The position numbers and the translations under genes were made by a program. 5,020 nucleotides of DNA from a virus (lineage: Duplodnaviria; Heunggongvirae; Uroviricota; Caudoviricetes). The stretch lies in IMG/VR virus record IMGVR_UViG_2698536506_000003, one strand, 5' to 3'. Every line of letters begins with the position of its first letter. The first letter of the stretch is position 1. The notes under the pieces were generated by a model. The model was given only the letters and a program-made list of their open reading frames with translations, did not search any database and was not told where the DNA came from. Below, piece after piece: positions 470 through 5,020 of the stretch.

Positions 470-675
470 AGTCTCACTCCCACCGGACCGCGACGCCGTC
501 CGGACACGCCCAGCGCACTCTCCAGCTCTTCAATGTATTGCCGCAGTTCACCAATCGTCGCACGCGAATACTGAACCTGCCGTCCGTTCCTGCCGACAGA
601 AACCACAGCACGCCCGATCATCAGTTCATGTAATGCCCGACGCGCCTCGCAAAGCATTTCATGCGTATAAACCAT
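466..675 (-). CDS. head-tail joining / head completion protein, lambda gpW-like
   Basis: 69-aa minus ORF MVYTHEMLCEARRALHELMIGRAVVSVGRNGRQVQYSRATIGELRQYIEELESALGVSGRRRGPVGVRL. Size, position (immediately after terL, before portal) and sequence (ARRALHELM, GRAV, ELRQYIEELE, RRRGP) match lambda gpW (68 aa) as recalled. ATG at 675 lies 3 nt after the terL stop, with GGAGGA 8 nt upstream. Confidence 0.8.
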   Translation of the reverse strand: MVYTHEMLCEARRALHELMIGRAVVSVGRNGRQVQYSRATIGELRQYIEELESALGVSGRRRGPVGVRL

Positions 676-678
676 CCT

Positions 679-2595
679 TTATCCTCCACTCAGTGCAGCC
701 GCGATCTCTTCCATGCTCATATCATCCTCATCCTGCTCATCTCTTCGTGCCCTCGCCAGCGCTTCAAGGTCCAGTTGCCACCGCTGTACCGAAACGCGCA
801 GGGCGGCATAAGCATATACCAGGCAGTCGAGGGCTTCGTTGCGTCGCCCTTTTTTATCCCACAGCAGTTTCACCCTGCCGTTAACCACCTTTTCCACCAG
901 TTCTTCCGCTACGATTTGACGCGCCTCTTCTTCCGAAAAAATGTCCGGGTTATCCGGAAAACGGAAGATATACGGGGCTGCTTCACTGGCAGAAACCACC
1001 GGCAGGGCAAAACGGGCGTACAGCATTTCCTTGACGGTATCGGAGCCCACCTCACACAAAAACACACCACGCTGGTTGCGCTTTTTGGGCATGGTGATCA
1101 CCGGCTTGCCATACACCGATGCCCCTTTTATGGGAAGCACAAAAAAAGTGCCGTGTTTCCTGGAACGTTGATACACAATGTCCTGGTCGATACCACCGGT
1201 ATCCCAGCAGACGCGGGAAATGGAAATTTCAGTACCGTCAGCATGGCGGTATTTTTTCCGGATCACCGCATCAACACGTTTAAGGGTGTCCTCGTCCTCC
1301 GGTCGCCCCATGATAATTTGCTTGTCAATCAGAAAGGCTTCTTCGCCGGGAGCCCAGCCCCAAACATAAATTTCATAGCGATCTTTCTGGGAGTCTATCC
1401 CTGCGGTCAGGTAAACCACCCGCAGGGGAACCTGCGCGCCATAGTGGCAGACTTTTTCCAGCAACAACTCAAAGCTCAGTTTTTCTGCCACGGCCTCTTC
1501 ATAGGGCTCCCCGAGCGTGGTGTTAATGAACGTCTTGACGCCATTCGGATCCTTCAGTGCATCGAGCCAGTCATAAACAATCTGTACCCAGGTGGTGAAC
1601 GGGCTGTATGCCGTCCAGATGTGGTACGAAATTGAGCGCGGTGGCGGGATTTCCTCATCACCGGCACTGTAAAATGTCAGGCCGTCACGCGTCCACATCC
1701 CGGTATTGTCACAAATCCAGCATCCGTCGGTCTGGTCAAGTTCCGACTGGCGGATCACACAGCCATTATGTTCACACAGGTAATACACCGTTTCGGGTTT
1801 ACCCTTCTCCCATTTCAGGCCAAACGGCGTCGCATCATCGCCAAACTTCAGATACTGGGCCTCCCCGCAATGAGGGCAAGGGACATAAAACCGCATGAAA
1901 TGCGCAGATTCATTCGCCGCTTTCTCAATCTGGCAGGAGCCTTTAATTTTTGGCGTTGAGCCGCGTATGGATTTAGGCCATACCGAGCCTTCGATACGTT
2001 TATCGCCAAGCAGCGTCGGCGAGCCTTCTTTTTCCACATCCGGTTCAAACGAGGAGAGTTCGTCATAGCAGACCACATCCACAGATTTTTCACGGTAGTT
2101 TTTAGCAGCGGCCCCCCCCAGGCACCAGAACCCCACGCCGGAGGAAAAACGCTTCAGGGTGAGTGTGTTGTCCCGATGTTTTCTGCCCAGCCATGGCGAT
2201 AACGCTTTAAGGCTGGGGACATCCCGGAGCGTTGCTTCCACATGCGCTTTCATAAAATCTTCAGCTGCGGAATCTGTCGGCTGGAAGAGCAGGCTGTTAC
2301 GGGATTTATGCTCAATAAAATACCCGACCACGCCCAGCAGCATTTTGGTGTAACCCACACGCGCCGATTTAATCAGATTAACAGTGCGGATCCTGTCGTG
2401 CCCCATGCTGTTCATAATGGCGACCTGAAACGGCAGGGTTTTCCACTCTCCTTCACCGTATGACGATTCTTTAGGCAGATAATAATTTTGATCAGCCCAT
2501 TCAACCGGCGTGACCGGCAATGCCCTTATTAGTGGCTGTAATGCGGTTGTGACGGCGATCATCATATTATTCAACTGTTGTTCGGATATATTCAT
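679..2595 (-). CDS. terminase large subunit, lambda gpA-like
   Basis: Long minus ORF (track 679..2631). Translation from MNISEQQ aligns along its full length with lambda gpA as recalled (VEWADQNYYLPKES, KSARVGYTKMLLGV, FWCLGG-AAKNYREKSVDV, GDKRIEGSVWPKSIRGSTPK, CPHCGE-QYLKFGD, WTAYSPFTTWVQIV, TAGIDSQ-DRYE, CWDTGGID, PIKGASVYGKPV, RRNEALDC). Start set at ATG 2595 (GGAG 7 nt upstream) rather than the GTG at 2631 used by the track. Stop TAA at 679-681. Confidence 0.93.
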   Translation of the reverse strand: MNISEQQLNNMMIAVTTALQPLIRALPVTPVEWADQNYYLPKESSYGEGEWKTLPFQVAIMNSMGHDRIRTVNLIKSARVGYTKMLLGVVGYFIEHKSRNSLLFQPTDSAAEDFMKAHVEATLRDVPSLKALSPWLGRKHRDNTLTLKRFSSGVGFWCLGGAAAKNYREKSVDVVCYDELSSFEPDVEKEGSPTLLGDKRIEGSVWPKSIRGSTPKIKGSCQIEKAANESAHFMRFYVPCPHCGEAQYLKFGDDATPFGLKWEKGKPETVYYLCEHNGCVIRQSELDQTDGCWICDNTGMWTRDGLTFYSAGDEEIPPPRSISYHIWTAYSPFTTWVQIVYDWLDALKDPNGVKTFINTTLGEPYEEAVAEKLSFELLLEKVCHYGAQVPLRVVYLTAGIDSQKDRYEIYVWGWAPGEEAFLIDKQIIMGRPEDEDTLKRVDAVIRKKYRHADGTEISISRVCWDTGGIDQDIVYQRSRKHGTFFVLPIKGASVYGKPVITMPKKRNQRGVFLCEVGSDTVKEMLYARFALPVVSASEAAPYIFRFPDNPDIFSEEEARQIVAEELVEKVVNGRVKLLWDKKGRRNEALDCLVYAYAALRVSVQRWQLDLEALARARRDEQDEDDMSMEEIAAALSGG

Positions 2596-3076
2596 CGAGT
2601 AACTCCGGCAATTTATCCCCTGCCCGCGCACACTGATTCGCTCCCTTTGCGATAAGGGTTTTCAGATAATCAATATGACGCGGGGTTAAATCCGGGAACT
2701 GTCGCTGCATGGATAAAGGAATGGAATCAAGCGTACTGGACAATGCCATCGCCAGTTTGCTGAGGGCGAAAACGCAGAACCCTGAATCAATAAGTCTGCC
2801 TTCAGTTACCTGATTTTTTAATTGCTGTGCTATTGCCTGTTCTTCAGTCAATTTCCATCTGGCGATAAGTAATTTTTCTTCATAGTCTTCTTCGCTATCA
2901 CCATCAGACACATCATTTTTACTTCTCCTCAGATACGATATGTAAAAATCACGCCAGGCATCCAAGTCATGATGCCCCCGTTTATTCGAGACCGGGGCAC
3001 CCGGCAATTTCTGCAATCTGCGAAGCTGGCGATCGGTCAGACTCAAATGCCTGGCAACTTCAGTCTGCGTAGCCAC
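2567..3076 (-). CDS. terminase small subunit, lambda Nu1-like
   Basis: 169-aa minus ORF with GTG start at 3076 (GAGGTGA SD upstream; the preceding in-frame codon is a stop). The C-terminal half (GFCVFALSKLAMALSSTLDSIPLSMQRQFPDLTPRHIDYLK ... LPELLDEYI) aligns with lambda Nu1 (AFCTFVLSRIAGEIASILDGLPLSVQRRFPELENRHVDFLK ... LLSEYI). The N-terminus (TQTEVARHLSLTDRQLRRLQ) is a helix-turn-helix-like segment that differs from lambda. The 3' end overlaps the terL start by 29 nt, as in lambda. Confidence 0.85.
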   Translation of the reverse strand: MATQTEVARHLSLTDRQLRRLQKLPGAPVSNKRGHHDLDAWRDFYISYLRRSKNDVSDGDSEEDYEEKLLIARWKLTEEQAIAQQLKNQVTEGRLIDSGFCVFALSKLAMALSSTLDSIPLSMQRQFPDLTPRHIDYLKTLIAKGANQCARAGDKLPELLDEYIRTTVE

Positions 3077-3120
3077 GACTCACCTCGCAAAAACTCTCAC
3101 CTCACAATCAGAAAACCGCT

Positions 3121-3219
3121 CATGTCCGGTTTGCATGTTCGTTTTTTGTACATGTCCGGTTCACAAAAAGCTTGTTTTTATATTTTTCATATAGTTAACC
3201 AGTAGTGAAACCGGACATG
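3121..3219. repeat. cosB-like array of terminase-binding (R-type) repeats: CATGTCCGGTT at 3121-3131 and 3151-3161, inverted copy AACCGGACATG at 3209-3219, degenerate copy CATGTTCGTTT at 3134-3144, AT-rich spacer 3162-3208
   Basis: Three exact 11-bp copies (two direct, one inverted) lie between the terS start and the cosN candidate, separated by an AT-rich stretch. This mirrors the lambda cosB layout (R3, IHF site, R2, R1) but with a different repeat sequence from the lambda R elements. Confidence 0.6.
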
Positions 3220-3226
3220 GTTCCCT

Positions 3227-3299
3227 GAAAATTTTCGTAAATAGCGCGTTTTTGCGCGTCCTACGACCCCCGGTGTTTCAACTCCCGGAAAGGACCCGC
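3227..3299. other. cos core: cosN-flanking block (3227-3246), candidate cosN / cohesive-end region (about 3250-3275), cosQ-like motif (3285-3298)
   Basis: Minus-strand CGCTATTTACGAAAATTTTC (3246-3227) matches 19 of 20 positions of the lambda left-end sequence CGCTATTTATGAAAATTTTC that begins 22 nt inside the left cohesive end. Plus-strand CCGGAAAGGACCCG (3285-3298) is identical to the lambda right-end block 17 nt before the right terminus (cosQ region). The two blocks are 38 bp apart here versus 39 bp in lambda. The intervening sequence contains a near-palindrome GTCCTACGAC (3258-3267) but does not match the lambda 12-nt end GGGCGGCGACCT. Confidence 0.6.
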
Positions 3300-3443
3300 A
3301 CAAATGGGAGCGTTTATCATTAACATTTACAGATAAGATGACGTACATCATTGAAACGCCATTCAGCCATATACCTGCAGCATTCGTAGTTGCACTCCGC
3401 AACTCTGCGACTACGGTTATAAAAGCATTGGCAACTTTTGCCA

Positions 3444-3487
3444 CCGGCAAATCTTCCATGGATTTCCCCTGCCGGTTTTTTATTTTT
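3444..3487 (+). repeat. stem-loop plus T-tract element, copy 1 (CCGGCA ... TGCCGG followed by TTTTTTATTTTT)
   Basis: 6-bp GC stem 3444-3449 / 3470-3475 with a 20-nt loop containing the palindrome CCATGG, followed on the plus strand by a T-tract at 3476-3487. Shares the block CCCTG..CCGGTTTTTTATTT with copy 2. Confidence 0.4.
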
Positions 3488-3578
3488 GTCGATGCGTAAC
3501 ATTGCATTTACATCAATACCAGCTAATGTCATATGCATGTTTTACTGAAGCATGGGTGGTATTGGCGGTCTTCGCCGG

Positions 3579-3664: not shown

Positions 3665-4057
3665 TTACTTGCGAACCAGACAAACGTCCTTGCCGTTAGT
3701 TTCAATACGTGAATACTGCGGTTTGCCATCAATGACTTCTGACATTACGAACACCTCACCCGGCTGCAGTTCAACTGCACCTTCCGGTAATTTCATACCG
3801 GCAAATACCGGACAGCCCGGATGGCGATCATCTTCTGTTGCTTCCAGCATTGACTCACCAAACCACGCCGTTGTGGCGCGACCATCAGCAGCCTTGTAGT
3901 GGATCAAGTACTGGTTTTCGCCATCCGCATACTGCGCGCGGGCTTTAACCTCACCCCATTCATCACTGATGCGCATCTCCACCAGTTGAGACAACTCAAA
4001 CTTAAACGGAACAACAGCGGCACCAATTGCAACCGGTTTATTTTCTGTTTTTTTCAT
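3665..4057 (-). CDS. hypothetical protein, 130 aa (cos-proximal accessory gene)
   Basis: Minus ORF (track 3665..4087). Start chosen at ATG 4057 (MKKTENKPVAIGAAVV...) because GGAG lies 7 nt upstream, whereas the ATG at 4087 sits inside the terminator hairpin with no SD. Stop TAA at 3665-3667. No domain recognised; no transmembrane segment evident. Confidence 0.6.
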   Translation of the reverse strand: MKKTENKPVAIGAAVVPFKFELSQLVEMRISDEWGEVKARAQYADGENQYLIHYKAADGRATTAWFGESMLEATEDDRHPGCPVFAGMKLPEGAVELQPGEVFVMSEVIDGKPQYSRIETNGKDVCLVRK

Positions 4058-4070
4058 TATCGTCTCCAAA

Positions 4071-4097
4071 TATAAAAAGCCCCGCATTTGCGGGGCT
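4071..4097 (-). terminator. intrinsic (rho-independent) terminator, minus strand
   Basis: Minus-strand AGCCCCGC-AAAT-GCGGGGCT (stem 4078-4085 / 4090-4097, 8 bp, GC-rich) followed immediately by TTTTTATATTT. Lies 22 nt downstream of the stop of the 71-aa gene. Confidence 0.65.
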
Positions 4098-4118
4098 ACA
4101 AACAGGCATCACAGCCAG

Positions 4119-4334
4119 TTAGCTAAGTCCGACAGACATAAAATCATCACTACCTAAACGATGGGAACCATAACGAACTTCATACTCCCCATTCAATTCA
4201 GAGCGTTTAGACTTTGCGCCATCCTCCGTCGCATAAATACCGACCAGATGCCACGGTTTGTCACGTACTACAGCCCAACCCAGAACCCATCCCTGATTAT
4301 CAGGATCAGCCTTCAGGTTATTTTCTACAAACAT
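4119..4334 (-). CDS. hypothetical protein, 71 aa
   Basis: Minus ORF (track 4119..4364). Start chosen at ATG 4334 (MFVENNLKADPDNQGWVLGW...) because AAGGAG lies 7 nt upstream; the ATG at 4364 has no SD. Tryptophan-rich; no domain recognised. Confidence 0.55.
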   Translation of the reverse strand: MFVENNLKADPDNQGWVLGWAVVRDKPWHLVGIYATEDGAKSKRSELNGEYEVRYGSHRLGSDDFMSVGLS

Positions 4335-4374
4335 AGTGTTCTCCTTTTGGGTACCCAGAGACATTCTATGTCAT

Positions 4375-4599
4375 TCATGAAACCGGCAACAACGTGGCTG
4401 TTACAATCCCCGCCATATTCGCGTTCAGATCACATTCAACAGAAATTTCTTCATCCGTGGCATCCACTTCATATGTCCGGGAATAACATTCCGTGCATTT
4501 ACCACTGAAGATATCCTTAACCAGAACACGTCCACGCTGCAAAACCCTGAATGGAATCGTTCCGTTAAAGGGCTTTACGGTTACCAGTAATCTCTTCAT
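4375..4599 (-). CDS. hypothetical protein, 74 aa
   Basis: Minus ORF MKRLLVTVKPFNGTIPFRVLQRGRVLVKDIFSGKCTECYSRTYEVDATDEEISVECDLNANMAGIVTATLLPVS with GGAGGGG SD upstream of ATG 4599. Basic N-terminus, acidic C-terminal half, three Cys (CTEC plus one). Its upstream region is lost in the N gap. Confidence 0.5.
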   Translation of the reverse strand: MKRLLVTVKPFNGTIPFRVLQRGRVLVKDIFSGKCTECYSRTYEVDATDEEISVECDLNANMAGIVTATLLPVS

Positions 4600-4617
4600 A
4601 TCCCCTCCGGATAAAAA

Positions 4618-4754
4618 NNNNNNNNNNNNNNNNNNNNNNNNNNNNNNNNNNNNNNNNNNNNNNNNNNNNNNNNNNNNNNNNNNNNNNNNNNNNNNNNNNN
4701 NNNNNNNNNNNNNNNNNNNNNNNNNNNNNNNNNNNNNNNNNNNNNNNNNNNNNN
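4618..4754. other. assembly gap (137 N)
   Basis: Uninterrupted run of N from 4618 to 4754. Confidence 0.99.
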
Positions 4755-4782
4755 GTGTGTCCAGTGTTTTCGCTTCATCTCA

Positions 4783-4917
4783 CTATCCACCAATCAATCC
4801 GGATAAGCTCAATACTCGCCAGGCGGTGGAAATGAAAATGGCAACCAACATTGCTGAAAATGAAAGGCCAACAACCACACAGAGAATTCGCGCCAGTTTT
4901 ATAATGCTATCTGACAT
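4783..4917 (-). CDS. candidate small membrane protein, 44 aa
   Basis: Minus ORF; internal ATG at 4917 gives MSDSIIKLARILCVVVGLSFSAMLVAIFISTAWRVLSLSGLIGG, with one predicted transmembrane helix (about 23 hydrophobic residues) and a G-rich AGGGG stretch upstream. The track's longer form starts at GTG 5010, directly after a stop. The island 4755-5020 is separated from the rest by the gap. Confidence 0.3.
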   Translation of the reverse strand: MSDSIIKLARILCVVVGLSFSAMLVAIFISTAWRVLSLSGLIGG

Positions 4918-5020
4918 ATTTACCCCTGCCCCACTTACGATTTCACAGCAATGATCAATTTTGCCATCCCATACAGAATCGGAGACACAGCGATACCGAC
5001 AGCCACCCACTTAATGGCAA

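Follow-up and report, generated by a model that had tools for sequence, protein, structure and literature searches.

What fixes the ends of the virion DNA in a phage whose cos site keeps the flanks of phage lambda cos but carries a different core between them? The question is raised by a 5,020-nt stretch of Caudoviricetes DNA (the window, meaning throughout the whole stretch that was analysed), in which an initial annotation had picked out two lambda-like blocks and predicted a non-lambda cohesive end between them. The cos site of lambda is the textbook model of how a viral terminase recognises and cuts DNA; the system, its mechanism and the existence of cosN variants are already well known, and the class of sites described here is a modest variation on them. 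Minus-strand positions 3121-3297, in our assessment, very probably make up an entire cos site, belonging to a temperate lambda-like Escherichia phage or prophage and working by the mechanism proposed below.

Anatomy of the cos site and its surroundings

IMG/VR contig UViG_2623620495_000006 matches the window at 100% identity, and Escherichia genomes contain close relatives of the window. Its minus strand is a lambda-type late region (Table 1) with the lambda gene order Nu1-A-W-B, the gpW gene being followed by the start of a portal gene on the same strand. The terminase genes lie directly downstream of cos, their Phage_Nu1, GpA_ATPase and GpA_nuclease matches all exceed the Pfam cut-offs, and the gpA homologue is 64% identical to lambda gpA. 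Within the small subunit (TerS), the Phage_Nu1 model covers residues 49-150 only, and the N-terminal 90 aa, which are not lambda-like, fall in a separate family (PHROG 7289); the partial Pfam cover and the separate N-terminal family are together consistent with exchange of the DNA-binding domain for one that recognises another R sequence. A 106-aa ORF running across cos (3187-3507, minus strand) was set aside as spurious, having neither Pfam nor PHROG support, and Rfam gave no match near threshold anywhere in the window.

Table 1. Features of the cos site and adjoining genes in window coordinates; bp 1 is window position 3268, read on the minus strand.
Feature	Position	Strand	Remarks
cos site	3299-3121	minus	follows a non-coding stretch, precedes the Nu1 homologue
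cosQ (GGGTCCT), packaging-termination element	3291-3297	minus	identical to lambda GGGTCCT
cosQ-cosN spacer	3269-3290	minus	21 nt from GGGTCCTT to the predicted nick
cosN left flank GAAACACCGGG	3279-3269	minus	last 11 nt of the cosQ-cosN spacer; conserved
Predicted nicks	3269/3268 (minus strand); 3256/3257 (plus strand)		phase from comparison
Predicted 12-nt 5' cohesive end GGTCGTAGGACG (cosN core)	3257-3268	minus	bp 1-12
cosN right flank CGCAAAAACG	3247-3256	minus	bp 13-22; starts CG, like lambda (CGCGGGTTTT)
I2-like block CGCTATTTACGAAAATTTTC	3227-3246	minus	bp 23-42; 19/20 to lambda
R3, proximal TerS-binding repeat CCATGTCCGGTTT	3208-3220	minus	bp 49-61
A+T-rich spacer, R3 to R2 (I1-equivalent position)	3162-3207		74% A+T
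R2 repeat CATGTCCGGTT	3151-3161	plus	bp 108-118; inverted relative to R3
Degenerate R-like copy CATGTTCGTTT	3134-3144	plus	82%; a fourth copy
R1 repeat CATGTCCGGTTT	3121-3132	plus	bp 137-148; oriented as R2
Terminase small subunit, Nu1 homologue	2567-3076	minus	169 aa; GTG start at bp 193; Pfam Phage_Nu1 E=4e-20; PHROG 57/1790
Terminase large subunit, gpA homologue	679-2595	minus	638 aa; Pfam GpA_ATPase 2e-53, GpA_nuclease 2e-68
gpW head-tail joining protein	466-675	minus	Pfam gpW 5e-24

Both blocks that the initial annotation had matched to lambda were borne out on comparison with the lambda genome (NC_001416). The first is the I2-like block, which matches lambda bp 23-42 and is kept in every cosN and cosB class seen; the second, at 3285-3298, is the reverse complement of lambda right-end CGGGTCCTTTCCGG at 14 of 14 positions. 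In 200 shuffles of the window that preserved its dinucleotides neither block turned up, and they lie 38 bp apart against 39 in lambda, as had been claimed. The heptamer GGGTCCT, which in lambda stands 30 nt from the right end, we take to be cosQ partly on its lambda coordinates. To the right of the core there is no indel relative to lambda, the core, I2, R3 and the Nu1 start (bp 193 against bp 191 in lambda) standing in the same register, and the one missing base falls between cosQ and the core. In the literature, cosQ is described as a highly conserved 7-bp element (PMC4669245).

The cosB architecture is likewise that of lambda in outline. Three R repeats are present with R3 inverted relative to R2, R3 and each of the two distal copies are inverted repeats with 100% complementarity, and the position of R3 agrees with that in lambda (bp 50-65) and N15 (bp 48-60) (PMC9026076). 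The repeat itself, however, is unrelated to that of lambda (CATGTCCGGTT against CGTTTCCTTTCT), and R1 and R2 are both inverted relative to R3 in the window, whereas R1 in lambda, phi80, 21 and Gifsy-1 is described as oriented like R3 (PMC9026076). An IHF site is less evident than in lambda: the best matches to the IHF consensus between R3 and R2 carry 2 mismatches, against 1 for lambda I1 in the same scan.

By homology with lambda, we propose that the Nu1-type subunit, through its non-lambda N-terminal DNA-binding domain, would bind the three CATGTCCGGTT repeats (R3, R2 and R1) and, so bound, anchor two gpA-type large subunits (TerL) symmetrically on cosN. These would nick the two strands 12 bp apart to leave the 5' overhang GGTCGTAGGACG, and cosQ, cosN and the I2-like block would serve termination at the next cos. 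In the lambda mechanism, the TerL nuclease shows little sequence specificity of its own and owes its position to TerS at R3 (PMC4669245, PMC9026076). Against this reading we count a left nick flank of GG and a left core half of GGTCGT rather than GGGCGG, a spacing from cosQ to the nick 1 bp under that of lambda, the want of a good IHF consensus between R3 and R2, and a source contig of only 5.1 kb.

Several features of the surrounding DNA are worth recording. Between the lysis region and cos lie four small minus-strand ORFs (3665-5010) of about 130 aa (PHROG 1935), 81 aa (4280), 74 aa (2571) and 75 aa (4906), all of unknown function. Just upstream of the 130-aa ORF stands a strong intrinsic terminator (4097-4078, minus strand), which gives a moron-like arrangement. 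The 137-N run at 4618-4754 stands for 303 nt of real sequence (325-627 of the source contig, L153), which on the minus strand encode a 51-aa protein with a lipobox (…FFLVGC…) belonging to PHROG 7528, function not known. Upstream of cosQ, a non-coding stretch of ~135 nt (3285-3420) is 73-82% conserved with phiSTEC1575-Stx2k, phi458 and cdtI, despite their differing from the window in the types of cosN, cosB and terminase; the stretch yielded neither an ORF family nor an Rfam match. The Nu1 leader (3079-3107) holds a tandem near-repeat CTCACCTC(G/A)CAA (minus strand TTG(C/T)GAGGTGAG) with a spacing of 17 nt, which provides two Shine-Dalgarno-like GAGGTGAG motifs ahead of the GTG start. The cosN right flank (3248-3256) and this leader (3086-3094) form an inverted repeat of 9 nt, which was rejected as probably due to chance, since PhiR12_1 has the same leader with another cosN flank.

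Phase of the nicks and the predicted overhang

The claim that the core is not that of lambda stands only in part: GGGCGGCGACCT is absent, but GGTCGTAGGACG is identical to the lambda end at 6 of 12 positions in the predicted phase, which makes it a diverged lambda-type core and not unrelated sequence. The near-palindrome reported between the blocks is present (GTCCTACGAC, 8/10 palindromic, centred on 3262/3263). What must then be decided is where the nicks fall. A functional cos could be cut elsewhere, for example with a top-strand nick 22 nt after GGGTCCTT as in lambda, yielding an 11-nt overhang GTCGTAGGACG or a 12-nt overhang at 3256-3267, and the 1-bp deficit relative to lambda does sit between cosQ and the core. 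We nevertheless consider such a shift unlikely, as identity to the lambda end drops to 4 of 12 when the core is displaced by one base either way.

Register and symmetry both point to the predicted phase. Lambda terminase sets the bottom-strand nick by its distance from R3 (PMC4669245, citing Higgins and Becker), and the core-to-I2/R3 register, being identical to that of lambda, would place this nick at ACG/CGC. About the middle of the 12-bp stagger, bp 2/11, 3/10, 4/9 and 6/7 of the window are symmetric. Among 15 cores of the same class, the conserved centre of symmetry lies between bp 6 and bp 7 (3263/3262), as in lambda and as the predicted rather than a shifted phase would have it: the pair at bp 2/11 is symmetric in 15/15, that at bp 3/10 in 12/15 and that at bp 4/9 in 14/15, the last covarying from C-G to A-T in four cores (GGTA....TACG), with bp 5/8 and 6/7 unconstrained. 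A sister site, GAAACACCGGG/GGGCGGCAGACG/CGCAAAAACG, carries a lambda-like left half aligned in exactly the predicted phase, which counts against a displaced nick.

The boundaries of two database records bear on the same point. Phage cdtI (NC_009514) and Hafnia phage yong2 (MZ516527) resemble the window in cosQ and in the 21-nt spacing from GGGTCCTT to the nick (22 in lambda), and yong2 also shares the left flank GAAACACCGAG; they differ in their cores (GGGCGGGAGCGT and GGGGCAGCGACA, respectively), in TerS and cosB, and in a TerL of ~700 aa that is only 26% identical. The cdtI record begins 21 nt past GGGTCCTT, at GGGCGGGAGCGT and exactly at GGGCGG, and the linear yong2 record ends 33 nt (21+12) past GGGTCCTT and restarts at CGCGGG. 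The two phages have TerLs 67% identical to each other and homologous right flanks, and their record boundaries fall at positions homologous to the two predicted nicks, although each record defines one boundary only, which leaves some room for a shifted nick. A-tracts are found beside the bottom-strand nick in the window and also in cdtI and yong2, where lambda has a T-tract (CGCAAAAACG against CGCGGGTTTT at bp 13-22); bp 13-24 of the window (CGCAAAAACGCG, 3245-3256) approximate the reverse complement of lambda CGCGGGTTTTCG.

The overhang at 3257-3268 (minus strand) is thus most likely GGTCGTAGGACG, in agreement with the original prediction, to which the I2/R3 register, the symmetry centre, the sister core and the cdtI and yong2 boundaries all lend independent support. 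The broader proposal of a lambda-like packaging system with a different cohesive end accords with all the computable evidence, and the window would then span the junction of the virion ends. No IMG/VR or metagenome contig starts at the predicted bp 1, all matches to the right-flank string CGCGCAAAAACGCGCTATTTAYGA (38 in IMG/VR and 13 in metagenomes) being internal, and the 50,697-record collection holds no isolated phage with the exact cosN class and cos-defined ends. The search for such phages yielded only SerU-LTIIb (a partial prophage), vB_EcoM-705R4 (cos internal) and yong2 (left flank and spacing only).

A rare cosN class with a hypervariable centre

Three routes were used to collect sites related to that of the window: a cosQ...I2 pattern, the flanks of the class and TerL similarity, the last being unbiased with respect to cosN. 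They define a class with the signature GGGTCCTT, 21 nt ending in ACACCGRG, a 12-nt core and then CGCAAAAACG, in which the flanks GAAACACCGRG and CGCAAAAACG are invariant and at least 15 distinct cores stand between them. Of 5,426 complete E. coli genomes, 81 (~1.5%) contain the class, against 4,587 with the lambda class, and the signature of the present class is found in 28 IMG/VR contigs and in Escherichia whittamii, the only species found in the genome-contig scan besides two MAG matches dismissed as chance, which had neither cosQ nor any other cos context. None of the 120 IMG/VR contigs matching the cosQ...I2 pattern carried the window core, almost all having GGGCGGCGACCT or right-half variants of it, and a full-text literature search with the core and flank strings returned only unrelated papers. 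SerU-LTIIb (KU052038) and STEC308-type prophages of E. coli share this cosN class, their flanks being identical and their cores GGTCTGGGGACG and GGTCATAGCACG, and none of them has annotated or mapped ends; SerU-LTIIb differs from the window in having a lambda-like cosB (GATCCGTTCTTCTTC). In E. coli STEC308 (CP091020) the cos site lies at about 2,937,977-2,938,053, and the isolates behind GCA_024628285.1 and GCA_014105865.1 carry exactly the core of the window.

Variation within the class is sharply bounded. Across 26 unique sites picked by TerL similarity, entropy is 0.04 bits in cosQ, 0.67 bits in the variable first part of the cosQ-cosN spacer and 0.13 bits in the cosN left flank; core bp 1-2 and bp 10-12 are invariant (0 bits) and bp 3-9 hypervariable (0.24-1.9 bits), after which entropy returns to 0.02 bits in the right flank (bp 13-22) and 0.13 bits in I2. 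As a rough estimate, based on just 7 core sites and on a TerL alignment that was ungapped and anchored at the stop, pairwise diversity is ~0.42 at bp 3-9 against at most 0.17 at TerL third codon positions, and on the same rough footing it is zero at bp 3-9 in 22 lambda-class loci. From this pattern, terminase apparently requires the flanks, bp 1-2 and 10-12, and the symmetric GTM/KAC pair at bp 2-4/9-11, with the central core bases apparently free to drift.

This class contradicts a published generalisation on which cosN positions are constrained. Natural cosN variation has been described as restricted to bp 7-12, the left half and the CG beside each nick being conserved and under selection, and mutations in the lambda left half GGGCGG are deleterious (PMC4669245). 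In the window, the left half GGTCGT is identical to that of lambda at 4 of 6 positions, and bp 3-6 vary across the class; the right nick is flanked by CG (bp 13-14) but the left by GG where lambda has CG, the class as a whole showing GG, AG and rarely CG there. Phages N15 and phiD326 (variant at bp 9 and 12) and Gifsy-1 (at bp 8, 9 and 11) offer the closest precedent (PMC4669245): like the window, whose end is predicted, they have lambda-type 12-nt ends that differ from lambda beside an invariant cosQ, and such variation would be tolerated because anchoring by TerS at R3 positions TerL. Their changes lie in the right half (bp 7-12) only, unlike those of the present class, which fall at bp 3-9 and in the left flank (GG/AG) and comprise at least 15 alleles.

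One must consider whether the unusual core is simply the product of decay, the site being a non-functional remnant in a defective prophage and the departure from lambda mere mutational erosion. The source contig is short (5.1 kb), a relative (L164) has a truncated morphogenesis region after gpA, and the core departs from lambda in the half that is functionally important there (PMC4669245). Erosion, however, would not spare the flanks and confine itself to bp 3-9, leaving cosQ, the cosN flanks, bp 1-2 and 10-12, I2 and three R repeats near-invariant; Nu1, gpA and gpW are intact, the class recurs beside full head and tail gene sets and with at least five cosB/TerS cassettes, and both the induced Hafnia phage yong2 and vB_EcoM-705R4 carry related cosN flanks. 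We therefore regard decay as very improbable and retain the reading of a complete cos site.

Why the centre should be so variable admits more than one account. It is conceivable, if improbable on present evidence, that bp 3-9 are actively diversified and act as an end-compatibility code, which would limit the cyclisation of packaged chimeras whose two ends derive from heterologous cos sites of lambdoid prophages resident in one host or, alternatively, exploitation by cos-bearing satellites (PICIs) with the canonical lambda cosN. Another possible source of the diversity is mutagenesis of the single-stranded ends while they are exposed, combined with segregation of heteroduplexes once mismatched ends have annealed.

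Two further loci carry unusual versions of the site. One IMG/VR contig (L140, IMGVR_UViG_2531839265_000009) has two class cos sites ~740 bp apart in opposite orientation, at 492-522 (plus strand) and 1228-1258 (minus strand), which differ in core (GGTAGCCATACG, GGTACGTGTACG) and in cosB type. A metagenomic contig (L135, IMGVR_UViG_3300045988_025107) shows the class flanks at 62-92 (AACACCGGG/GGTTTTATGCCG/CGCAAAAACG) with only a diverged cosQ-like GGGGTTCATTTC and no I2 block, and may be a more distant relative of the class.

Cassette exchange and the large terminase subunit

At least five cosB/TerS cassettes are found next to this one cosN class, and the cassette of the window also occurs with the canonical lambda cosN. 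The latter combination is found in PhiR12_1 to _5 (PV340549-54) and many E. coli prophages, which share the cosB (CCATGTCCGGTTTC R repeats) and Nu1 type of the window, the DNA being 85% identical over cosB and the Nu1 start; they differ in their GGGCGGCGACCT cosN, in a 22-nt spacing and in the C-terminal half of TerL, which is only 58-82% identical. On one side the cassettes are bounded between I2 and R3, on the other about 28 codons inside gene A. Across loci L172-L251, segment 2567-3220 (cosB, Nu1 and the first ~28 codons of gene A) behaves as an exchangeable cassette, with at least five R-sequence/TerS types placed between the same cosN class and near-identical TerL bodies. Prophages with exactly the Nu1 of the window (L163 and L165-L168) have lambda-like head genes (portal, S49 protease, gpD-like, gpE-like, FI and FII) followed at about 20000-20510 by GPW_gp25 and Baseplate_J, so that a contractile-tail-type baseplate is joined to a lambda-type head and packaging module.

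Another explanation of the class is that it represents a distinct nicking specificity co-evolved with its own TerL C-terminal part (nuclease and putative dimerisation), such that lambda-class terminases would not cut the class cosN, nor the converse. In 76 TerL-anchored loci the cosN class does track TerL lineage despite the swapped cosB-Nu1 cassettes: identity to the TerL of the window is 93-100% in this class, ~92% in the cdtI-like class and ~82% in the lambda class of the TerL-anchored sample, and TerLs linked to the lambda class are 91-97% identical in aa 1-300 and only 58-82% in aa 301-641. Yet over aa 151-520 the TerL of the window is 98-100% identical to TerLs that accompany the cdtI-like class (left half GGGCGG, flank CG). 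The cosN class of the window is found beside TerLs of only 44% identity as well (705R4, E. whittamii), and its left flank beside one of 26% (yong2), and no cosN specificity was found between lambda and N15 (PMC4669245). Double-crossover replacement of the cassette would, moreover, keep cosN associated with gene A without selection.

A natural hybrid whose left arm is of the cdtI class and whose core and right arm are type 2 also speaks against co-evolution. Located at ~1870-1893 of IMGVR_UViG_2531839265_000001 (L256), this hybrid cos consists of a cdtI-class cosQ arm ending in GGGTCCTTCCGATGGGGTGGCCTTGCCACG and the type-2 GGTCTGGGGACG CGCAAAAACG, with a junction near the predicted top-strand nick, the outcome expected if mismatched cohesive ends segregated (mechanism in PMC4669245). 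The exchange point can be placed only within -2 to +3 of the predicted nick and so does not separate the predicted phase from a shifted one, a point that the latter retains in its favour. On the TerL identities and this hybrid, co-evolution was downgraded from main explanation to rival, and we hold it to be doubtful, preferring a lambda-type terminase positioned through TerS at R3 on a complete cos site.

Were the predicted ends wrong, the locus would still be a lambda-like packaging region and little would change, and general interest in the class is moderate to low unless its central hypervariability proves to be selected. The class keeps the cosQ, I2 and cosB architecture whilst breaking the left-half and CG-flank rules, and its sharply bounded 7-bp hypervariable centre constitutes a natural mutagenesis set for what gpA-type nucleases read. 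Its signature permits annotation of prophage ends in ~1.5% of E. coli genomes, including those with toxin-carrying prophages of STEC and ETEC, and between co-resident prophages differing sticky ends may limit cross-packaging and cyclisation.
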